Virus record (IMG/VR): IMGVR_UViG_3300032216_000254
Span: 1 to 35,896 of that record
DNA length: 35,896 bases
Reading direction: 5' to 3' (one strand)
Source of the DNA: a virus
Lineage: Duplodnaviria > Caudoviricetes
Shown here in pieces: positions 1,802 through 29,391 of the stretch; the first letter of the stretch is position 1, and the number at the start of each line of letters is the position of its first letter. The position numbers and the translations under genes were made by a program. The notes under the pieces are model-generated. The model ran no database searches and was not told the DNA's origin. It worked only from the letters and a program-made list of their open reading frames with translations.

Positions 1802-4315
1802 ATGGCTTTAGTCTTAAAGGATAGGGTCAAAGAAACAAGCACGACCACAGGCACAGGTTCGCTTACGCTTTTAGGTGCTTCTACTGGATACCAAACATTC
1901 TCTAGTGCTATCGGTAACACTAATACTACTTATTACACTATCCAAAATGCAGGCGAATGGGAAGTAGGTATTGGAACTGTTAGTGCAGGTTCGTTATCTC
2001 GTGATACCGTATTAGCATCATCTACAGGTGCTAAAGTAGCATTAAGTGCAGGTACTAAAGATGTATTTTGTACCTATCCTGCAGGTAAATCTGTATACAC
2101 AGATGCATCAGGTAACGTCAATTTATCAGGCACACTAACATCTACAGGTGAAATAACACCATCAGTCACAGCATCATCTACAGACTTAACATTAAGTGCT
2201 ATTAGCACAGGTAATGTTAATTTAAATACGCTAAATGGAACTTCATTAAAAGCAACAGATGTTGGAAGTTCAATGGTAAATTATGTTGAAGTTCAAGGCG
2301 GTGGTTCATCTGCTAGAGCATTAATTAGTTCAGGTGGTAGTGATGGAAGTATTCCACTTGTTATTAGAACAAAAGGAACATCAGCAATTAACTTTGCTAC
2401 AAATACTAGTTCTACAAATATACAAGCCGTAGTTGCCCACACAGCTTCTGCCGTAAACTATGTTCAAGTAACAGGTAGTGCTACAGGTGGATTACCAACA
2501 ATATCTGCACAAGGGTCTGATGCGGCTGTTGCTTTAGCTATACAATCTAAAGGCACATCACCTATTGTATTGCAAAATGGTTCAGCACAAAGAATATTAC
2601 GAGCAGATGGAACAGGCACAGGAGTAAACTATTTTAATATAGTTAGTTCTGCCGCATCACAAGCACCAATATTTAGTATTGCCGCCGCAAGTTCTGATGG
2701 TAATGTAAGTATGGCTTTCCAACCTAAAGGCACAGGTGCTATAGACCTAGCCGCAGGTAGTAATGGTGTAAATATAAGTAATGGTGGAACTGTAACAGCA
2801 GTTACAAGGACAAATGCAGGAACAGGATATACAACACAACCTACATGGACTGCATCTGCACCTACAACTGCAGGCGGAACAACAGCATCAGGAACAGCAA
2901 ATCTTGTTTTAGCGGCTGTAAGTAGTATTGGTAGCGGTGGCACAGGATATACTGCAGGTGATGTTCTTACGATTTCAGGTGGAACAGTAGCTTCACAAAC
3001 AGCACAAGTAACAGTATCAACAGTTTCAAGTGGTGTAATTACAGCGGTTACAGTTACAAGAGGCGGTGATTATACAGCTTCGCCTACAAACCCTGCATCA
3101 GTTACAGGTGGCACAGGAAGTAGTGCTACATTCAATCTTACATTTGGTATTCTTAATCCTGTAGTTTCAGTAGCAGGTTCAGGCTACATAGAACAACCTA
3201 CAATCACCTTTAGTGGTGGTGGTGGTAGTAGTGCGGCGGCTTATGCTACTGTGGGTAGTGGAACAGTTATTCGCAGTCTTGGTAATACAATGGATTTATA
3301 TGCACCAAGTGGCATAGGTTTTCGTATTGGTGATGGTGGTGCTACAACAACAGGATATTGGACTGCCTATCCAAATACAGCTTCACCTTCATTAAGAGCC
3401 ATTGGTTCATCTAGTGGTCAAATTGCTACAGGTTCAGCAGTTCCTATTCAGTTTTTAACTAATGCTACATCATCATCTGTAGAACAACTACGAGTATCCC
3501 ACACAGCATCAGCAGTTAATTATGTGCAGGTGACGGGTGCGGCAACAAGTGGACAACCTACTATATCTCCACAGGGTAGTGACGCCAATATAACTCTTGC
3601 TTTATCGCCAAAAGGCACAGGATTAATAAATATAACATCTGCCGCAAACATTGCTAGAAATTCTTATAACTTTATTCAAATTGCTGGAGGTGCGGCTACA
3701 GGAAATGCACCTAGCATAAATGCTTTAGGAACAGACCCTAACATAGACCTAACACTAACACCTAAAGGAACAGGTAGCGTAGCAATTAATAGTGCTATTA
3801 AGTTAGGTGCTAGTTTAGACGCTGGAACATCTGGTTATGTAATGACATCTGCAGGTACAGGTGCATCACCTACATGGACTGCTTCCACTGCAGGTGGTAT
3901 GACATTGCTAGGTACAATAACAACCACATCAGGAACTTCTGTATCTTTAAGTAGTTTAGTTTTAACCTCTTACAAACAAGTATTATTTATAATTAATGGT
4001 GTAAGTAATACTGGTACATTTGGTAACTTTACCATGACAGACCCTAATGCTACTACATTTAATTTAGCTGGATTTGGAGGAACTTCCACTTTTACTATTA
4101 CAGGTTATCTAACTATAGATTTATCTTCTGGAGTATTATTTGGAGTAGTAAGAAATAATACAACTACTACATTTCCAGATGTAAATTCTGGTGGTGGAGC
4201 TAATATACTCGTAATTGGTAAAACAACATTTAGCACATCCACAACAACATTTACATTTGGTGCATCTGCAAATGCATTTGATGCAGGTTCTATTTTAGTA
4301 TACGGTATTAAATAA
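1802..4315 (+). CDS. Long tail fibre / receptor-binding protein
   Basis: 837 aa, G/S/T/A-rich. N-terminal LKDRVKETSTTTGTG...WEVGIGT anchor and internal repeated modules. Confidence 0.8.
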   Translation: MALVLKDRVKETSTTTGTGSLTLLGASTGYQTFSSAIGNTNTTYYTIQNAGEWEVGIGTVSAGSLSRDTVLASSTGAKVALSAGTKDVFCTYPAGKSVYTDASGNVNLSGTLTSTGEITPSVTASSTDLTLSAISTGNVNLNTLNGTSLKATDVGSSMVNYVEVQGGGSSARALISSGGSDGSIPLVIRTKGTSAINFATNTSSTNIQAVVAHTASAVNYVQVTGSATGGLPTISAQGSDAAVALAIQSKGTSPIVLQNGSAQRILRADGTGTGVNYFNIVSSAASQAPIFSIAAASSDGNVSMAFQPKGTGAIDLAAGSNGVNISNGGTVTAVTRTNAGTGYTTQPTWTASAPTTAGGTTASGTANLVLAAVSSIGSGGTGYTAGDVLTISGGTVASQTAQVTVSTVSSGVITAVTVTRGGDYTASPTNPASVTGGTGSSATFNLTFGILNPVVSVAGSGYIEQPTITFSGGGGSSAAAYATVGSGTVIRSLGNTMDLYAPSGIGFRIGDGGATTTGYWTAYPNTASPSLRAIGSSSGQIATGSAVPIQFLTNATSSSVEQLRVSHTASAVNYVQVTGAATSGQPTISPQGSDANITLALSPKGTGLINITSAANIARNSYNFIQIAGGAATGNAPSINALGTDPNIDLTLTPKGTGSVAINSAIKLGASLDAGTSGYVMTSAGTGASPTWTASTAGGMTLLGTITTTSGTSVSLSSLVLTSYKQVLFIINGVSNTGTFGNFTMTDPNATTFNLAGFGGTSTFTITGYLTIDLSSGVLFGVVRNNTTTTFPDVNSGGGANILVIGKTTFSTSTTTFTFGASANAFDAGSILVYGIK

Positions 4316-4334
4316 CTTTTAAAAGGAAAAACAA

Positions 4335-4604
4335 ATGGCATTAATTAAATCAATACCTACAGACTTTGGCATTAACGCTGAATACTGGAATATCGGTGCA
4401 GTTCAAGAGGACTTTAAAGGCAAAGGCACAGAAGTAACATTCTATGGCTACGCTAATAAAGAAGCTCGTGAAGAAGGAAAACAACCATTATCAGCAGGCA
4501 AAGTTCAAATCGCAGGTGATGAATATGTAGCAGGTGCAGACCGTTCTGCTCTATACGCTATTATCAAGCTCAAACCTGAATTTGAAGGTGCAGTAGACGC
4601 TTAA
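4335..4604 (+). CDS. Small tail-fibre-associated protein (possible assembly chaperone)
   Basis: 89 aa directly after the fibre gene. MALIKSI.T.FG...Y..IK..PEFEGAVD pattern. Confidence 0.55.
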   Translation: MALIKSIPTDFGINAEYWNIGAVQEDFKGKGTEVTFYGYANKEAREEGKQPLSAGKVQIAGDEYVAGADRSALYAIIKLKPEFEGAVDA

Positions 4605-5137
4605 TGTTTGGATTTGCTGCACTATCGCAAATACCGTTTAGCTCACTTGCCACAAGTGAAATATATGCTAATGCATCTATAAACGCTTATGCTGATGTAA
4701 CAACTAATGCTTATAGAATAAGAAACACTAGTGGTGCTATAAATAGCAATGCAACAATAACTTGTAATGGAATTAAGGTAAGAACTGCTGTAGCAGATAT
4801 ATATGCAAATGCTACTGTAACAGCTTTAGGTGGTGTTGTTTATGACGGTCATGCTAGTGTAAATGCTACTGCTTTATTAAATTGTAATCCTAATGCAATA
4901 TGGTATGGACTAGGTGCAGTATCATGCCTAGCTAACATATTTGCAAATGGTCGCATTGTAGGTGATGAGTGGAATACACAAGCTGGTGGTAATGAACAAT
5001 GGAGTGCTATATCTACTGGCACAGAAACATGGACACAAATAAGTGGTGGTTCAGAAACATGGACTGAAACAGAAACTGGTGATAATACTTGGACAGATAC
5101 TGTGACAGGAAACGAAACGTGGTTAAGACAAGGGTAA
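4604..5137 (+). CDS. Virion structural protein with C-terminal Trp repeats
   Basis: 177 aa. MFGF..LS..PFS start and six Trp at 10-aa spacing at the C-terminus. Confidence 0.6.
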   Translation: MFGFAALSQIPFSSLATSEIYANASINAYADVTTNAYRIRNTSGAINSNATITCNGIKVRTAVADIYANATVTALGGVVYDGHASVNATALLNCNPNAIWYGLGAVSCLANIFANGRIVGDEWNTQAGGNEQWSAISTGTETWTQISGGSETWTETETGDNTWTDTVTGNETWLRQG

Positions 5138-18191: not shown

Positions 18192-18923
18192 TTATACTAA
18201 TCTTCCACTATATTGATAAGTTCCTGTATGGACTAATTGTGCCCATGCAGCACCCCAAACTTTAATTCCATTGTCTCTAGCTAATTTACAGAAATGATAG
18301 TCTTCAGATAATAACTTCTTATCTTCATCAATGCTAGTAGCAAAGTACTCAACAATTTCATCACCTAAATCAGAATTATTAACAGTATCATTCATATTAT
18401 GAATATATTTAGGACACTTGTCTTTTAGTTTATTAAACACTTCACGCTTAATAACCATGAATCCTGTGCCACCATGTTTAATCTCAAAAGGTTTATCTAA
18501 TGGTACTAATTGTTCTTTAATATCACCAACCATATTTACCACATATTCACCTGTAAAATATTTAAGTTGATTTTCTGGAACATTTTTTTTAATAGCAAAT
18601 GCTAGTGAACCAAAGTTAATTTCTTTTTTAGGGTAAAGACCACAGATAATATCTACATTTGAATCAATCATTTTAAATAAATGTTCTGGATTAAAATTAA
18701 TATCAGCATCAATAAATATCATATGAGTGCAATCAGATTTTAAAAAATCATTAACTAATGTATTTCTACCACGAGTGATAAGGCTTTCATTATATAGAAA
18801 TGAAAAATAAGCATCTATATCTTTAGCAATAAGATGTGCTTGTAGGCTTAATATAGACTCCATATAGGTTCCATAACATAAACCTCCATACATAGGAGTT
18901 GCTATAAATAAATTAGGTTTCAT
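18192..18923 (-). CDS. GT-A fold glycosyltransferase-like protein
   Basis: IATPMY, ESLITRGRN, FIDADI (DxD), GTGFMVIKR.VF and SEDY.FC motifs. Confidence 0.75.
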   Translation of the reverse strand: MKPNLFIATPMYGGLCYGTYMESILSLQAHLIAKDIDAYFSFLYNESLITRGRNTLVNDFLKSDCTHMIFIDADINFNPEHLFKMIDSNVDIICGLYPKKEINFGSLAFAIKKNVPENQLKYFTGEYVVNMVGDIKEQLVPLDKPFEIKHGGTGFMVIKREVFNKLKDKCPKYIHNMNDTVNNSDLGDEIVEYFATSIDEDKKLLSEDYHFCKLARDNGIKVWGAAWAQLVHTGTYQYSGRLV

Positions 18924-19059: not shown

Positions 19060-19279
19060 TATTTGCCTCCGTTAATCTTTTGCTATCATATTTTTTAGTG
19101 TTAATTACTTTAATAATTCCTTTAACATCTGGAATCAATGGTGTTATCGTAACATTGTGAAGTTTAGATTTTAGGTCTTTAAACCATGAAAGTTCTGTAG
19201 GTTCAGATGTCATAAGACCAGACCATACAAGTTTACCTGTTCCATCAAATTCTTCTACAAGCCACGCTAACGGTTTCAT
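19049..19279 (-). CDS. Hypothetical protein
   Basis: 76 aa starting MKPLAW, coupled to neighbours. Confidence 0.55.
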   Translation of the reverse strand: MKPLAWLVEEFDGTGKLVWSGLMTSEPTELSWFKDLKSKLHNVTITPLIPDVKGIIKVINTKKYDSKRLTEANSGL

Positions 19280-19662
19280 TAATAAAATACCATCCTTCCT
19301 ATTTTAACCATTTTCTTTTTACCAAACCATTGAGTTTTTGTTGGCATACTATCGTCATGGAAGTAAAGAGCTTGCCCAACTGGATTTGCATATTTATGAA
19401 AAACAATTGTATCAAGTACCAATAGTTTAGTTTCCAAATACGCCTTTTCATCAACTTTCCTATGACTTTCATCTGTAACCCCAATAAACTGACCATTAGC
19501 ATAAACGACAGAGCATACAGAATCACCCCAGCGACCACTATGCAACCTATTACGAATAACATTAATTACTCCTATCTTGGCTTCTATTGATTGTGTATTA
19601 GCCTCGTGATATACAGCACTAGCATAACACACAATTTCCATTTCTAAATGACTAATGTCCAT
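19279..19662 (-). CDS. SleB-like cell wall hydrolase (Hydrolase_2)
   Basis: C.A.AVYHEA, V.NVIRNR, SVCSVVY...QF, ALYFH and IG.MVFY motifs. Start taken at the second Met; 19680 is the alternative. Confidence 0.8.
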   Translation of the reverse strand: MDISHLEMEIVCYASAVYHEANTQSIEAKIGVINVIRNRLHSGRWGDSVCSVVYANGQFIGVTDESHRKVDEKAYLETKLLVLDTIVFHKYANPVGQALYFHDDSMPTKTQWFGKKKMVKIGRMVFY

Positions 19663-20014
19663 TTGGCTGATAAAATCCACTAACTAAAGGCATAATCACA
19701 TCTGCACCAATTTTTTCAATAATCATTTCTCTAATATTATGTTTACTCATTCCTGCTAACTCACAACATAAATCATAAATATCATTATCATCAAATAACC
19801 ATTGTATAGCATCTACCTTGTCTCGTAAAGCTAATTTGTTTTTAGACTTTAAAGTTGTGATAGACCTTTCTGTTGCATCTCTTTTTTGTTTTTTAGGAAC
19901 ATACATAGCATCATCTATTGTTTGGTATAACATTGCCAATAATAACTTTGCCTCTGGAAGTTCAGCTAAATTACTTTTATCATCATAATCTACTATATCG
20001 TCATCAAAATCCAT
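19652..20014 (-). CDS. Hypothetical protein
   Basis: 120 aa with GGAG RBS. PE..L..A.L.Q...DA..W...CEL.G pattern. Confidence 0.6.
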   Translation of the reverse strand: MDFDDDIVDYDDKSNLAELPEAKLLLAMLYQTIDDAMYVPKKQKRDATERSITTLKSKNKLALRDKVDAIQWLFDDNDIYDLCCELAGMSKHNIREMIIEKIGADVIMPLVSGFYQPNGH

Positions 20015-20130
20015 AATGTCTCCGTATTTTCATTAGGGTAAAATAAATGTTTATTACTTGCTTTTATATGTATAATTAGCCACAATAATATACACAAGCT
20101 AATTTGCTTGGATTTTATTAAGGACAAATC

Positions 20131-20202
20131 ATGTGGACAAAACCATCAGCAACTGAAATGCGTTTCGGCTTTGAAGTAACAATGTATGTAATGAACAAGT
20201 AA
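20131..20202 (+). CDS. pqqA: PQQ precursor peptide PqqA (not in ORF track)
   Basis: Direct translation MWTKPSATEMRFGFEVTMYVMNK*. Has the PqqA W-x-x-P leader, the R-x-G-F-E-V-T-x-Y core and the E-x-x-x-Y pair. AAGGA RBS 6 nt upstream. Confidence 0.95.
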   Translation: MWTKPSATEMRFGFEVTMYVMNK

Positions 20203-20209
20203 TTCTAGA

Positions 20210-20237
20210 GAGGGTGTTCCTAAAAAGGAACATCCTC
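20210..20237. terminator. Hairpin between convergent pqqA and SSB genes
   Basis: GAGGGTGTTCCT-AAAA-AGGAACATCCTC, a 12-bp stem with one G-U pair on the + transcript. It overlaps the SSB stop codon and has no clear U-tract. Confidence 0.55.
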
Positions 20238-20456
20238 GTCTACTGTTGCTTGTTTAGGTTTAACATCACCGTCTTTTAATTGAACAGTTCCGCTAATAAA
20301 CTTACCATTCTTTCCTTCACGAATCCAACCAGCGATTCTAAACTCAATACCATCTACGTTTGCAAGTCCTGTATAGTTTGGTTTCTTTGGATTATCACCT
20401 TGTTCATTTTTAAATAATGTAAATGTGTTTGTATTATCATATTTTTGTTCTGCCAT
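20220..20456 (-). CDS. Small single-stranded DNA-binding protein
   Basis: 78 aa. LFKN...PNYTG....DG......W pattern and acidic DEDVPF tail, in the recombination module. Confidence 0.7.
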   Translation of the reverse strand: MAEQKYDNTNTFTLFKNEQGDNPKKPNYTGLANVDGIEFRIAGWIREGKNGKFISGTVQLKDGDVKPKQATVDEDVPF

Positions 20457-20471: not shown

Positions 20472-20684
20472 TTATCTAACTGCGTTCTTACGTCTAGTAT
20501 AATGCCTTTTTACTACTGAACCTCTAAATGCGTCTGGGTTAGTTTCTACTAACTCATCTATAACAGCATGTAGTTTTTCCATATAAGGTGCTTGACCATC
20601 TTCACCTAAATCCCAAAACTTTCTAGCTGGCATACCACTACTTGCCATCATAAGTTTTAATCTTTGTTCCTCTGTTAGTCTCAT
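20472..20684 (-). CDS. Hypothetical protein
   Basis: 70 aa with AAGGAG RBS. Confidence 0.6.
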   Translation of the reverse strand: MRLTEEQRLKLMMASSGMPARKFWDLGEDGQAPYMEKLHAVIDELVETNPDAFRGSVVKRHYTRRKNAVR

Positions 20685-21283
20685 TTAATCTCCTTAAGTT
20701 TTTTAATTATTTCATCTACTTCCCCTAAAAACTGCTTAACTTCTGACTCCAATTCTTTTTGATATACAGAGTCTGCTTCAACACGCTTTACAAATAATTG
20801 TAAATGCTCTGGAAACATTGGGTTATAGCTAACAAAATCACACCACTTACGACCTGTAACCAAAAGTTGAAATTGCACTTGAGGTATATACTTACTTGGA
20901 ATATCTTGAGTCATCAATGTTTCTGTATGCGTACTTCCCATAGGACATTTAATTTCAAGAATACCGTCTGTACCTACCATACCATCTGGACTAGCACCAG
21001 CTTCCAAAGTAGGATGCTGAATAAATCCTACTTCTTCCACTTCACCATGTTGTTGCACATATTTTTCCCTAGCATAGAACTCCCTGTCAATTCCATCTTG
21101 CATCGCTTGGTTCACATATGTTTCTTGCCTTTCACCTGTAAGCCTTTCGCTTACTAGCTGAATCTTGTAGTTACGTCTAGACGCAGATTCACCAGACTTA
21201 ATCTTTGCTAGCACATCAGCCACACGACTAGCTGTAACTTTGCCTAGTCGTGCTTGAAACCACTCTTCGCTACGCTGTTCCAT
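20681..21283 (-). CDS. YqaJ / lambda-type exonuclease
   Basis: QRSEEWFQARLGKVTAS, ASPDG, LEIKCP, Y..QVQ.Q and WCDFVSY motifs. Confidence 0.9.
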   Translation of the reverse strand: MEQRSEEWFQARLGKVTASRVADVLAKIKSGESASRRNYKIQLVSERLTGERQETYVNQAMQDGIDREFYAREKYVQQHGEVEEVGFIQHPTLEAGASPDGMVGTDGILEIKCPMGSTHTETLMTQDIPSKYIPQVQFQLLVTGRKWCDFVSYNPMFPEHLQLFVKRVEADSVYQKELESEVKQFLGEVDEIIKKLKEIK

Positions 21284-21783
21284 TAGATAAAGTCCTCTGC
21301 TTTAGTATCTTTCATTTTAATAACTGCACCAGCACTAGCATCTACCACGTCATGCTCAACAATCTCAAGTGCTGAAACCCATAAGTATCTACGAATATAA
21401 GTTTGAACTGCACCTAGATTCTGAACTTCATGGCAACCTTTAAGAGCAGCAGTTGACATAGGGCTTGTAATATTAACACTAGAACCATCTGCCATATCTG
21501 TAATAGTAAGTGTTGCAATTTCTTTACCAAAAGATACAATACCACATAATTCTAATTCTGAAAATATTTTTTGAATAGCTGGTAAAAAATCACCTAGTTC
21601 AAAGTATTTATAACCAGCAAATTTATTATGTCCAGACTTTGTTAAGTTTGTTTCTTGTAACTTTAATCTAGCTTGCATTAACTTCTTATAAACTCCCATC
21701 TTGCTTCCCTCCGTTATGTATTTGTTCACTTCTTCTATTTCCTGTTGCATCATCACTTGGTCGTAAAACATTTGACTGTCCAT
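21283..21783 (-). CDS. ERF-family ssDNA annealing protein
   Basis: KSGHNKFAGYKYFEL.D and Q.LGA..TY.RRY motifs. Start is 21783 or 21699; both have an RBS. Confidence 0.8.
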   Translation of the reverse strand: MDSQMFYDQVMMQQEIEEVNKYITEGSKMGVYKKLMQARLKLQETNLTKSGHNKFAGYKYFELGDFLPAIQKIFSELELCGIVSFGKEIATLTITDMADGSSVNITSPMSTAALKGCHEVQNLGAVQTYIRRYLWVSALEIVEHDVVDASAGAVIKMKDTKAEDFI

Positions 21784-21871
21784 ATCGTTTCTCCCATTCA
21801 TCATTTGATTTCTTAAAGTCTTCTACCATATCATGCAGTATTTCTGATACACGTCTTAAATCAGATGCCAT
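21686..21871 (-). CDS. Hypothetical protein
   Basis: 61 aa starting MASDLRRV with a GGGG RBS. Overlaps the ERF 5' region in another frame. Confidence 0.4.
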   Translation of the reverse strand: MASDLRRVSEILHDMVEDFKKSNDEWEKRYGQSNVLRPSDDATGNRRSEQIHNGGKQDGSL

Positions 21872-26478: not shown

Positions 26479-26650
26479 GATTAACTTTTAATTGCTTTTC
26501 AATAAGTAATTTAGCTTCTTTTTTAGTATTCATAAAATAATAGTTTTTAATGGTTGATTGATTGTAAAGAATTACATCATTAAGAAATTCAGATAACTTC
26601 TTATTGTTAAAGTTAGCAATAGTTCTGTTTTTAAAGTCTATAACATACAT
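26471..26650 (-). CDS. Small hypothetical protein (not in ORF track)
   Basis: 59 aa starting MYVIDFKN, AAGGAG RBS. Confidence 0.55.
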   Translation of the reverse strand: MYVIDFKNRTIANFNNKKLSEFLNDVILYNQSTIKNYYFMNTKKEAKLLIEKQLKVNHG

Positions 26651-26859
26651 TTTAACGTCTCCTTATTGGTATTTACATAATTTTGAATAAGTTCGTCTAG
26701 GTCTTCCGTATTTTCTGTTATGTTAAGTTCTCCCATAACATGCAATCCTAGATTTAAAATGCCTTGAATATAATCACCTCTAGATATATTGCTATTGGTG
26801 TCTTGATAATGTTTAGCAAGTTCTAAACATACTTGTGAATAAGTAAATGGATTTATCAT
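26638..26859 (-). CDS. Small hypothetical early protein
   Basis: 73 aa, AAGGAG RBS. Confidence 0.6.
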   Translation of the reverse strand: MINPFTYSQVCLELAKHYQDTNSNISRGDYIQGILNLGLHVMGELNITENTEDLDELIQNYVNTNKETLKCML

Positions 26860-26868
26860 TGATTCTCC

Positions 26869-27072
26869 TTATAAGTAATTCATAAAGTTATTAGGTCTGA
26901 ATGAAGTAGTATTATCTAGCCATTCATTATATAAATCTTCCGCTAGATTATCGGCTTCCTTATCGGTCATAGGGTCGCAATCATCAAACGAATAGACAAG
27001 TTCATGATTGACATAGAATTTAAACTTATTTGTAGTATCATCGTAAGAATAGCTAAAATCACTCATCGTCAT
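26869..27072 (-). CDS. Small acidic hypothetical early protein
   Basis: Start taken at MTMSDF, which has an AAGG RBS. Confidence 0.55.
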   Translation of the reverse strand: MTMSDFSYSYDDTTNKFKFYVNHELVYSFDDCDPMTDKEADNLAEDLYNEWLDNTTSFRPNNFMNYL

Positions 27073-27286
27073 TAACCTTTCTGTCATATTTTGATTCAAG
27101 ATAGTTAAGTTTATATTCATCTAGCAAAGAGTTAGCTAGTTCACTTGCTTCACTTGCAAAGGTTGAGGCGTATTGATTAAGAAATCCTTGCCAATCCTCA
27201 TTTGATAACTCATTTTGAGGGTCGATGTCTTCTTTATCAATATATTGGTATAGTGTATCCGATAGTAAATCATCTATTGTTTGCAT
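27059..27286 (-). CDS. Small acidic hypothetical early protein
   Basis: 75 aa, AGGAG RBS. Confidence 0.6.
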   Translation of the reverse strand: MQTIDDLLSDTLYQYIDKEDIDPQNELSNEDWQGFLNQYASTFASEASELANSLLDEYKLNYLESKYDRKVNDDE

Positions 27287-27288
27287 AA

Positions 27289-27471
27289 TTAACTCCTAGT
27301 TCTTAAAAGGTTGATTTCATCTGTGATTTCACCTAATTGACACTTCATGTCATCTAAATAAGCGTTTATAGTAAGATAACCGCTTGGTGTATCACCTTTA
27401 TAGACAACATCTTCTAAAGTGATGTCAATAGCGTGTAGCTTTTCTGTTATATAGTCTAAATCTACTTGCAT
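27289..27471 (-). CDS. Small hypothetical early protein
   Basis: 60 aa, GGAGGG RBS. Confidence 0.6.
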   Translation of the reverse strand: MQVDLDYITEKLHAIDITLEDVVYKGDTPSGYLTINAYLDDMKCQLGEITDEINLLRTRS

Positions 27472-27475
27472 GTTA

Positions 27476-27658
27476 TTACCCTCCTTTATTAAGGTTGTTA
27501 ATCATAGTTTTAAAATAATTTGTAGCGTTATAGTAATCTACATTATAAGATTTTGCCTCTTCTATATCCCAATAACTAGGAATATAGAATAAGCCATATT
27601 TATTTTGCTTAACATAATCATTACTTAACTCTTTTATATAGTCAAGTTCTGTTTGCAT
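27476..27658 (-). CDS. Small hypothetical early protein
   Basis: 60 aa, AAGGAGACTACACC leader. Confidence 0.6.
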   Translation of the reverse strand: MQTELDYIKELSNDYVKQNKYGLFYIPSYWDIEEAKSYNVDYYNATNYFKTMINNLNKGG

Positions 27659-27670
27659 GGTGTAGTCTCC

Positions 27671-27913
27671 TTATAGTGTTAATTGATGTATAGGATTGCC
27701 ATTTTTATCGAATTGATAATTATTCATATTACACATATCAATAATTATATGTTCGTCTTCTTTGGATAAGTCGCAATAATAAGAATAACCGAAAGTTCCA
27801 TCTTCTTTTTCGTATTCTTGAGGGTCATTGTCAAGCCAATAGATAACTTTTTGCTTTGCTTCATCGCTTAAGTCTTTATATTGATAAGCATTAATTGATA
27901 CAGATAGAATCAT
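27671..27913 (-). CDS. Small acidic hypothetical early protein
   Basis: 80 aa, AAGGAGACTACA leader. Y.Y.DLSDEAKQK and N.Y.FD.NG motifs. Confidence 0.65.
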   Translation of the reverse strand: MILSVSINAYQYKDLSDEAKQKVIYWLDNDPQEYEKEDGTFGYSYYCDLSKEDEHIIIDMCNMNNYQFDKNGNPIHQLTL

Positions 27914-27925
27914 TTTGTAGTCTCC

Positions 27926-28123
27926 TTAAATATAATTATGGTCAATGTTTATAGTCCATGAAATACAATCGTATTCATAAGCCGATTCGATAGCATTACA
28001 GACTTTGTCAATTTTATCTGTATCCGCAAATAACAGGGTAAACTCTGTAATAGGCGTTAAGTTTTCTTTGTTGGTGTTATTTGGTGTTGATTCATACGCC
28101 TTAAACGTGATATTAGCTAACAT
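27926..28123 (-). CDS. Small hypothetical early protein
   Basis: 65 aa, AAGGAGACCACA leader. Confidence 0.6.
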   Translation of the reverse strand: MLANITFKAYESTPNNTNKENLTPITEFTLLFADTDKIDKVCNAIESAYEYDCISWTINIDHNYI

Positions 28124-28140
28124 TTGTGGTCTCCTTGTAG

Positions 28141-28371
28141 TTATTGTAAAATTTCAATAGGTGTAAAACTTTTACCATTGTTTAAATCATGGGCTAGGTC
28201 TTTAAAAAGGCTTCTATAGTCCCTAGCGTTTAATATGCCATGATTATTGATTAAATCATCTGTTATCATATCGGCTACATAATCGCAAGTTATGGAGTTA
28301 TCGTAATTCCATTCCTCGCAATCGTCAATATAAGATAAAACATTTTCTTTAACTATTGGTAAGTATTTCAT
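28141..28371 (-). CDS. Small hypothetical early protein
   Basis: 76 aa starting MKYLPIV, AGGAGG RBS. Confidence 0.6.
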   Translation of the reverse strand: MKYLPIVKENVLSYIDDCEEWNYDNSITCDYVADMITDDLINNHGILNARDYRSLFKDLAHDLNNGKSFTPIEILQ

Positions 28372-28382
28372 TGTCAAGCCTC

Positions 28383-28469
28383 CTAGTAAGATAAGATTAA
28401 TAGTAAAAACATATAGAAATTGACAAAGCATAAGACAAATATTAAAAAGTTCTTTAATAGGTCATTCAT
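28383..28469 (-). CDS. 28-aa hydrophobic peptide (not in ORF track)
   Basis: MNDLLKNFLIFVLCFVNFYMFLLLILSY, AAGGAG RBS. Confidence 0.55.
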   Translation of the reverse strand: MNDLLKNFLIFVLCFVNFYMFLLLILSY

Positions 28470-28642
28470 TGTAATGTCTCCTTATTGATAGATTTAAAAC
28501 CTTGTAAAAGGGTTAATTCTAAAAGTTCTTTGTATTTATCGTTTAATAGTTCTTTATAGTCTTTATATGCTAAAGAATTACAGATTGTAAGCATATATTC
28601 TATGTTGTCAATCTCTTTGTTAAGCGTCTCTATTGTTTGCAT
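28466..28642 (-). CDS. Small hypothetical early protein (not in ORF track)
   Basis: 58 aa starting MQTIETLN, AAGGAG RBS, ATGA coupling to the next gene. Confidence 0.6.
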   Translation of the reverse strand: MQTIETLNKEIDNIEYMLTICNSLAYKDYKELLNDKYKELLELTLLQGFKSINKETLQ

Positions 28643-28779
28643 GGTTTAATCTCCTTAATATAGTTGTCAAGTTGTTTACAGATTGCTAAATACTCTTTAA
28701 CGTTTGTATAAGGGAATGAAACGCTAAACCCTTTGTCAAGTTGTAATTTTATCTCTTTAAGTTCTGTTATAGATAACAT
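28630..28779 (-). CDS. Small hypothetical early protein (not in ORF track)
   Basis: 49 aa starting MLSITELK, AGGAG RBS. Confidence 0.55.
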   Translation of the reverse strand: MLSITELKEIKLQLDKGFSVSFPYTNVKEYLAICKQLDNYIKEIKPCKQ

Positions 28780-28821
28780 GGTTAAGTCTCCTAGTTATTG
28801 GTTAAGTAATAATATATAAGT

Positions 28822-28959
28822 TTATAATGTTGTCAAGTATTCTTTAAACATTTGTTTAGCTTCTTTTATAGTGTATCCATAATAAGTTCTATTGATTAAT
28901 TGATTATGAATAATATCTGATAGTGTTATAGAGCCGTTATAGTTCTTTGTAATAGACAT
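28822..28959 (-). CDS. Small hypothetical early protein (not in ORF track)
   Basis: 45 aa, AGGAG RBS, YYGYT.KEAK..F motif. Confidence 0.6.
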   Translation of the reverse strand: MSITKNYNGSITLSDIIHNQLINRTYYGYTIKEAKQMFKEYLTTL

Positions 28960-29001
28960 GGTATTATCTCCTGTTATATTGTCAAGTTTAATTAAAACGT
29001 A

Positions 29002-29038
29002 GTTATAAAAGGGAATCAGTTAAAATTCCCCCTATAAC
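29002..29038 (-). terminator. Hairpin after the first early gene (terminator or processing stem)
   Basis: GTTATAGGGGGAAT...ATTCCCTTTTATAAC on the minus strand, about 14 bp with G-U pairs. Confidence 0.55.
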
Positions 29039-29047
29039 ATATATATA

Positions 29048-29323
29048 CTAGTTTAAGTTAGCTAGTATGTAAACACCTTGTTTAATCTTCTTTTCTGTCT
29101 CTTTGGTAGATTCATTAAGAAATGTGCTTCTATGTTTAGATGTAGTTCTAGAATAGTTCCAATAAACAGGGTCTAGATATACTTTATCAGGTAAAGAACC
29201 GTTATCTTCTATCTTTACGATAATAGACTTATAAGATTGAAAGTAAGTAGCGTTATCAGTTTCAATTATGAATTGGTTAGCTACTATATTATTTCTGTTA
29301 TTAGTTATGTTAGAGACTTTCAT
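29048..29323 (-). CDS. Conserved phage early protein, first gene of the array
   Basis: 91 aa from ATG 29323 with AAGGAG RBS. VANQFII, FQSY.S.I and W.YS.TT.KHR..FL motifs. Confidence 0.7.
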   Translation of the reverse strand: MKVSNITNNRNNIVANQFIIETDNATYFQSYKSIIVKIEDNGSLPDKVYLDPVYWNYSRTTSKHRSTFLNESTKETEKKIKQGVYILANLN

Positions 29324-29363
29324 GGTATGACTCCTTAAGTTATTTGTCAAGATTGACAATGTA

Positions 29364-29391
29364 ATCATATACCCATTAAATAACTTGTCAA
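29364..29391 (-). promoter_or_regulatory. sigma70 promoter for the small-gene array
   Basis: TTGACA-N16-TATGAT on the minus strand, about 40 nt upstream of ATG 29323. Confidence 0.55.

Follow-up and report, generated by a model that had tools for sequence, protein, structure and literature searches.

The DNA analyzed here (the window; 35,896 nt, 34.5% G+C) is the complete record of a virus that carries a genuine gene for PqqA, the peptide precursor of PQQ, as a unit of about 180 nt set antisense into a recombination operon. Related phages keep the gene at the same place and preserve its protein, and unrelated cultured phages of a single host family, the Methylophilaceae, carry it as well. From the gene and its distribution we consider it about 70% probable that the phage supplies PqqA as a substrate to the PqqBCDE enzymes of its host, which would sustain PQQ-dependent (XoxF-type) methanol oxidation.

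The gene and its neighborhood

What identifies so short a reading frame as pqqA? The preliminary description had picked it out by its 23 codons, its AAGGA ribosome-binding site, and an orientation opposite to that of its neighbors, and the coordinates, the translation, and the minus-strand flanking ORFs all agree with this (Table 1). The peptide, of about 23 aa, has the two marks of the PqqA family, namely, an N-terminal W-x-x-P and a Glu-x-x-x-Tyr (ExxxY) motif, here formed by Glu15 and Tyr19. It also passes the proposed check with PqqA HMMs. TIGR02107 gives 40 bits (cut-off, 20; E, 2.3e-10) and PF08042 gives 43.3 (cut-off, 21.1), both curated models being exceeded about twofold, which confirms the identity suggested at the outset. 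No PHROG family matched the window pqqA. The peptide lies 1 or 2 residues from the commonest host variants, bearing out its supposed resemblance to PqqA of the Methylophilaceae.

In addition to a minus-strand recombination block of ERF, YqaJ, and ssb, the window encodes a major head protein, an SU10-type portal, terminases, a DnaB-like helicase, and Cro. pqqA lies on the plus strand inside the ssb/YqaJ/ERF operon, in a gap between minus-strand genes, and the YqaJ/ERF operon (20681-21804) is the insertion place of the cassette. As a host-type metabolic gene with viral genes on both flanks, pqqA is a candidate auxiliary metabolic gene, and it is the only C1-related gene recognized in this phage. 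No integrase family matched among the 36 and 45 window ORFs scanned, and the tRNA/tmRNA and Rfam scans of the window were empty. Among GenBank records, the TerL of the window phage is 92% identical to that of the metagenomic MW202481, 72% to that of OM43 phage Venkman, and at most 48% to those of pelagiphages. Venkman is thus the closest cultured phage by TerL and has several neighbor genes in common with the window virus, which appears to be a Venkman-like podophage of 36 kb.

Two other parts of the window deserve mention. At 26638-29368 (minus strand), about nine small ORFs, mostly without family matches, have no counterpart in a complete relative (G026, described below) and are likely variable early host-interaction genes. 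A 243-aa ORF at 18192-18923 (minus strand; PHROG 1574) has an Anp1 glycosyltransferase-like match below the cut-off and is 97.5% identical in G026.

Table 1. Features at and around pqqA (window coordinates)
Feature	Position	Strand	Details
Cell-wall hydrolase	19279-19680	-	PF07486; left neighbor
120-aa ORF	19652-20014	-	Left neighbor of pqqA; no family given
Predicted sigma-70 promoter	20058-20086	+	-35 TTGCTT (20058-20063), 17-nt spacer, -10 CACAAT (20081-20086)
5' leader hairpin	20095-20110	+	5 bp; z -1.57, weak alone
Shine-Dalgarno sequence	20120-20124	+	AAGGA; 6 nt 5' of the pqqA ATG
pqqA	20131-20202	+	ATG start; 23 aa, then TAA
3' hairpin	20210-20237	+	12 bp; -22.9 kcal/mol and z -6.5 on the plus strand, -19.3 on the minus strand; overlaps the ssb stop codon; no U-tract
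ssb, single-strand DNA-binding protein	20220-20456	-	PHROG 18154 and 7364; convergent right neighbor of pqqA
YqaJ exonuclease	20681-21283	-	PF09588
ERF recombinase	21283-21804	-	PF04404

How might a gene that runs against its operon be transcribed? The candidate promoter upstream matches the sigma-70 consensus at 7 of 12 positions. When 50 distinct upstream regions from relatives are compared, 45 have a promoter-like site (TTG..-17 nt-..A...T, at least 7/12), where shuffles expect 21.1, and in 38 of the 50 the -35 box lies 71 to 75 nt before the pqqA ATG; these relatives have common descent. A generic promoter scan did not list the plus-strand site and returned two minus-strand sites, against 2.6 by chance. 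Given the 7/12 match, the miss by the generic scan, and the common descent of the relatives, the promoter is a prediction. The single sequencing run that covers the gene, probably DNA and assembled into contigs, does so only through pqqA pieces of other organisms or phages, and it speaks neither for nor against expression. The leader hairpin, whose motif recurs in relatives (19 of 44 distinct leaders), possibly marks the transcript start. Its derivation from a Methylopumilus copy was considered and found weak, the motif occurring in 2 of 17 streamlined-host leaders and in 1 of 120 other host leaders (this one being the same locus as one of the 2).

Downstream, the 3' hairpin is likely the 3' end or a protective structure of the pqqA mRNA, as judged from its predicted fold. 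Among the matches listed, a strong 3' hairpin (z below -2) follows 90% of 116 host copies versus 56% of 118 viral copies.

Conservation and an empty site in relatives

Is the position of the gene an accident of one genome? The preliminary description had asked for a survey of related phages for synteny and selection, and the survey bears out a gene that is kept in place and under constraint. Relatives were chosen by YqaJ alone (the best 80 of 322 found), and pqqA is present in 77 of these 80 contigs, 340 to 690 nt behind YqaJ and in the same antisense orientation; the three loci without it stop 0, 28, and 258 nt past YqaJ. Glu and Tyr are kept in all 77 copies, which were not selected on these residues. 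Many of the copies are near-identical. Over the 41 distinct coding sequences, including that of the window, pS is 0.395 and pN 0.046, for a pN/pS of about 0.12 (uncorrected pairwise values, not phylogenetically independent). This pattern of substitutions shows pqqA to be under purifying selection in the relatives, and with its ATG, Shine-Dalgarno sequence, stop codon, and low pN/pS, the window pqqA is an intact, translatable ORF under selection.

A second set of relatives was selected by portal, and of the 80 loci so found, 17 are on contigs of more than 21 kb. pqqA is present in 16 of these 17. The exception, G026, is complete (it has terminal repeats), is 97.6% identical in a capsid fragment, and has no pqqA anywhere; its ssb directly adjoins the cell-wall hydrolase. 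Such a clean empty site in a complete relative makes pqqA accessory, so that, from these comparisons, the gene is conserved but accessory. The homologous hairpin of G026 folds best on the minus strand (-18.9 versus -9.5) and covers the AGGAG before the hydrolase start. On the minus strand at L443:5600-5630, also from G026, the end of ssb base-pairs in this hairpin with the ribosome-binding site of the next gene, and the hairpin is likely a translational-coupling structure. We infer that the hairpin is older than the cassette, an element of the ssb operon that pqqA may later have recruited for its 3' end.

The gene is likewise dispensable elsewhere. Among 12 relatives of the gene next to pqqA in MEP401, 3 have pqqA at that site and 9 do not, and the MEP401-like MW202697 has none at all; together with G026, these absences mean that pqqA is not essential. 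A whole-record search of nine MEP401-type fragments, run without a positive control, also found no pqqA.

Two kinds of variant were seen among the viral loci. One 7-kb contig (L313) has two pqqA copies in opposite orientation, which may be an assembly artifact. Five loci (L021, L037, L073, L092, and L321) hold a second viral PqqA type, with the core IRLGMEITAY, at the same kind of site, which suggests that the allele was replaced, with another host or another copy in the host as the source.

Distribution among phages and the host copies

How far does the gene extend beyond these relatives? Run by tblastn against 50,697 GenBank phage records, the window peptide gave 12 hits. Nine are isolate records of Methylophilaceae phages from several unrelated groups, with peptides of the same type that are 77 to 100% identical: Venkman (100%), P19250A and MEP301 (91% each), MEP401 and MEP402 (87% each), and four Melnitz records (77%). 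The remaining hits are MW202481 and two contigs of "Acinetobacter phage MD-2021a." One of the latter (L446; CAKLQF020000010.1) was rejected as a phage pqqA, being a chromosomal ppk-pqqABCDE region, that is, a host contig in a phage collection. The Venkman ORF, which encodes the identical peptide, occupies the corresponding position next to the YqaJ operon. None of the nine isolate records annotates the ORF as pqqA, and in MW202481 and the Melnitz record examined, a hypothetical ORF is called over it on the opposite strand. Since pqqA has no PHROG family and goes unnamed in the nine isolate records, it is missed by ordinary gene calling, and auxiliary-gene surveys therefore undercount it.

The genomic setting of pqqA varies between phage groups, which include lambdoid podo- and siphoviruses, the Zobellviridae MEP401 and MEP402, the Kyanoviridae Melnitz, and T4-like loci with a clamp loader and Hsp20. 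A degenerate-pattern scan of IMG/VR gave at least 120 loci from 3 of its 64 parts, and the total is estimated at about 3,000 matching stored stretches (stretches, not genomes). All 119 N-free copies listed have an ATG within three codons, a Shine-Dalgarno-like site (a 4-mer, loosely defined), and a correctly placed stop, none of which was part of the search pattern; the 120th has Ns and is the same gene. Of the long viral loci, 40 (4 GenBank records among them) cluster with the window in a single large group, and the rest fall into many further groups, T4-like loci among them. Several named isolates fell outside the GenBank hits, and pqqA may not be present in every cultured methylophage. These are MEP431-434, HIM624-A/phiMB624-A, Venkman EXVC038S, MG-MTP1, and RSA-MFP1 (NCBI taxonomy), which may lie outside the searched collection; HIM624-A was absent from the MEP401 TerL search results as well.

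A Rahnella (enterobacterial) PqqA query returned the same 12 records plus one Microviridae match at E 10, and neither it nor the Methylophilaceae query matched a Pseudomonas or Klebsiella phage among the 50,697 records. Phages of other PQQ producers seem, by these searches, to be without pqqA, and the lack of a match agrees with an advantage confined to hosts whose energy metabolism is entered through PQQ.

That a viral pqqA might already have been published was suspected from the start, and both the gene and a proposed role are indeed in print. As given in the available part of their paper, Coutinho et al. (2020) found PqqA in one T4-like Lake Baikal virus, population VP_266, which has a predicted Methylophilaceae host and also encodes methanol dehydrogenase, and proposed that it boosts methanol oxidation (PMC7678222). 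The two cases have in common a phage-encoded PqqA, the predicted host family, and the proposed role; VP_266 is T4-like and has a methanol dehydrogenase, whereas the window virus is a 36-kb podophage with pqqA as its sole recognized C1-related gene. In that same available part, the report concerns one representative sequence, not a lineage-spanning gene, and its tables may list further copies. A reservoir study from 2026, in the portion available, counts pqqA among virus-encoded phosphorus-cycling genes, without detail (PMC13188868). The term pqq is absent from the Venkman, MEP301, and MEP401 papers (main text) and from the Autographiviridae and MG-MTP1 papers, and in the Melnitz paper PQQ appears only as a medium ingredient, the published medium for OM43 H5P1 having 1 nM of it. 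The literature covered, with subscription journals (including the P19250A paper) outside it, held no description of pqqA as widespread in methylophages or present in isolates. Nothing in this literature reports that unrelated cultured phages share the gene or that it is confined to one host family, the Methylophilaceae. Because the peptide is identical in cultured Venkman, the metagenomic proposal of 2020 is directly testable.

And the hosts? A narrow-pattern scan of GTDB for this peptide type gave at least 122 host loci. Of the 122 listed, 105 are titled Methylophilaceae, Methylophilales, or OM43, 15 carry a higher rank only, and a single MAG titled Acidovorax accounts for the other 2. These titles and the Venkman TerL support the family named in the preliminary description, and the host of the window phage is predicted to be one of the Methylophilaceae. 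For the genus, 72 nt are too little; assignment by DNA identity failed, with a best host match of 67/72 nt and no exact one. Ser6, found in the window and many relatives, occurs in only 2 of the 122 listed host loci. More generally, the N-terminal residues are more variable in viral than in host PqqA, and the core is identical to that of the host.

The phage copy stands alone, as had been claimed. A tblastn search with Methylophilaceae PqqB, PqqC, PqqD, and PqqE found no pqqB-E in the window, and the same queries match 14 to 18 of the 122 listed host loci. Nor is there a pqqB-E gene in any of the 206 listed viral loci (40 of them shorter than 700 nt), so that the canonical operon, with pqqB-E adjacent, occurs in neither. 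Standing alone is not a viral invention, however, since Methylophilaceae chromosomes keep several orphan copies; in the available part of Beck et al., 3 to 12 pqqA copies are set against one set of the other pqq genes, pqqB-G (PMC4109929). The window copy is like these orphans in its 23-aa type, its isolation, its Shine-Dalgarno sequence and 3' hairpin, and its presumed action in trans on one pqqBCDE set, and differs from them in being phage-borne, antisense in a recombination operon, and marked by the host-rare Ser6. In our own scan, pqqC-E lie beside pqqA in only 14 of the 122 listed host loci (42 loci are short). In the genus of "Ca. Methylopumilus universalis," 19 of 19 genomes (0.8 to 1.4 Mb) have 1 to 3 pqqA matches. 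M. universalis itself has three intact pqqA ORFs far from pqqBCDE, and the 5 kb holding pqqBCDE contain none; its PqqA is therefore already supplied in trans. Judging from these arrangements, hosts appear to treat pqqA as a dosage gene. Five small candidate host genomes have the machinery to use it, with PqqE above the cut-off in all five and a full PQQ alcohol dehydrogenase in four.

Proposed role and alternatives

Why would a phage encode the substrate of a pathway and none of its enzymes? The radical-SAM enzyme PqqE receives PqqA from PqqD and cross-links its Glu and Tyr, and proteases, PqqB, and PqqC then complete one PQQ per peptide. PqqA is consumed and the enzymes are reused, so that the substrate would be expected to run out first. 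We propose that infection cuts host transcription, that the short-lived substrate would then be exhausted before the enzymes, and that the phage gene, transcribed from its own predicted host-type promoter, would act as one more trans-acting source of pqqA beside the host orphans. From the phage peptide, host enzymes could make additional PQQ during infection, for use by methanol dehydrogenase. A 72-nt gene may be the cheapest way to maintain holo-XoxF through the latent period and, with it, the energy and formaldehyde supply of the host, from which the phage would gain in fitness.

A point in favor of this role is that pqqA is accompanied on some putative viral contigs by C1 genes, for a PQQ alcohol dehydrogenase or Fae. 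xoxF is the most transcribed gene of OM43 strain NB0046 (PMC5120137), and transcript values for R. palustris, from the available part of the source, are 2524 TPM for pqqA, 160 for pqqB, and 21 for pqqE (PMC10531626), an excess in line with a consumed substrate. Several points count against the role. PQQ is reusable, hosts have 1 to 3 or more copies, and limitation by PqqA within one infection is something we infer. The gene is missing from some relatives (G026 and those of the MEP401 neighbor gene). PqqB/PqqC may be limiting instead; in the part of PMC9851590 available, overexpression of pqqABCDE in Methylovorus MP688 brought a limited rise in PQQ, and PqqB/PqqC were suggested to be rate-limiting in Hyphomicrobium.

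Could the peptide serve some other end? It might be made into PQQ as proposed and yet be of benefit in redox scavenging, or through another quinoprotein, during phage DNA replication, rather than through methanol dehydrogenase. All the gene evidence fits this equally well, PQQ has an antioxidant role, and the candidate hosts have a further gene that resembles those for PQQ enzymes and scores below the cut-off for methanol/ethanol dehydrogenase. We nevertheless think it unlikely: many other hosts make PQQ, yet among GenBank phage records the gene is restricted to Methylophilaceae phages, and a PQQ alcohol dehydrogenase or Fae co-occurs with it on some viral contigs. The more variable viral N terminus and Ser6, rare in hosts (2 of 122 listed), would suit a decoy or buffer that occupies PqqD/PqqE or the Pqq proteases after host shut-off. 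An inhibitor would be expected to lose its reactive residues, yet all 77 copies retain Glu and Tyr and the core is the same as in hosts, which makes a decoy very improbable. There is similarly little to recommend the idea that leaked PQQ occupies a TonB-dependent PQQ importer that is also the phage receptor, thereby excluding competing phages. Receptor blocking has been demonstrated for E. coli PqqU phages, according to the available part of PMC12124388, but here unrelated podo-, sipho-, and myoviruses would have to share or compete for one receptor.

Might it be the DNA, rather than the peptide, that is kept? Host pqqA DNA repeatedly picked up as a homology patch would be a neutral passenger or a handle for recombination or integration. 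The cassette is modular, as the empty site illustrates, recombination genes are adjacent, and hosts offer many scattered copies. However, the changes in pqqA are mostly synonymous, and it is therefore the protein that is preserved, not the DNA. The flanks diverge and the start, Shine-Dalgarno sequence, and stop are kept, the window ORFs scanned include no integrase match, and even the best host DNA match is inexact, all of which leaves a passenger only a slim chance. An assembly chimera or host contamination has virtually none. Such cases exist, the chromosomal region in "Acinetobacter phage MD-2021a" being an example, but here phage genes lie on both flanks, and separate assemblies agree on the site, 77 contigs in all, as do the genomes of cultured phages. 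Recurrence at one place in 77 of 80 YqaJ-selected contigs, along with the identical Venkman ORF, is neither chance nor chimera, and the host-derived chimeric assembly named beforehand as a possible refutation is ruled out.

What would substrate supply by the phage mean more broadly? A PQQ enzyme is the point of energy entry for OM43 and Methylopumilus, methylotrophs that abound in coastal waters and lakes. Were their phages to replenish the PQQ precursor as a rule, methanol oxidation would continue in infected cells, with consequences for C1 turnover. For viral contigs, the gene further serves as a specific and inexpensive marker of the host. More tentatively, and at somewhat less than even odds, pqqA may be to methylophages what psbA is to cyanophages. 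It would then be the auxiliary gene most often carried by phages of streamlined Methylophilaceae, though overlooked until now; unrelated podo-, sipho-, and myoviruses would have it as a portable cassette of some 180 nt, and full burst size would depend on it because the precursor runs out first after host shut-off. Like psbA, it would be a fast-turnover part of a host energy-entry machine, common to unrelated phage families of one host group. Unlike psbA, PqqA is a consumed RiPP substrate and not a subunit, and its role is a proposal from sequence, whereas that of cyanophage psbA has experimental support. Were the analogy to hold, viruses would be driving a host RiPP pathway by substrate alone, and thousands of unassigned viral contigs would gain a 72-nt host marker.

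Several pqqA-bearing contigs carry further metabolic genes. On a 72-kb IMG/VR fragment, a full PQQ-dependent alcohol dehydrogenase (G053:C1:34049-35731) lies about 6 kb before pqqA, and a SoxY/SoxZ-domain protein (L053:4181-4900) comes right after it; the fragment resembles the Baikal case and could be host DNA. A putative viral contig encodes the formaldehyde-activating enzyme Fae (L038:227-826, minus strand; PF08714, 222 bits) 3.2 kb downstream of pqqA, a possible further C1 auxiliary gene. In another locus, pqqA stands between a cytochrome c gene and a gene of the D-2-hydroxyacid dehydrogenase family (L020:2723-3913 and 4171-4737, minus strand), the latter possibly an NAD-dependent formate dehydrogenase. 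A check for T4 capsid on three C1-gene contigs was blank and is uninformative on their viral nature. Finally, on a viral contig of 148 kb, pqqA is followed at 0.9 kb by an S-adenosylhomocysteine hydrolase (L064:4905-6191, plus strand), reminiscent of the SAM-cycle genes of the Baikal viruses.
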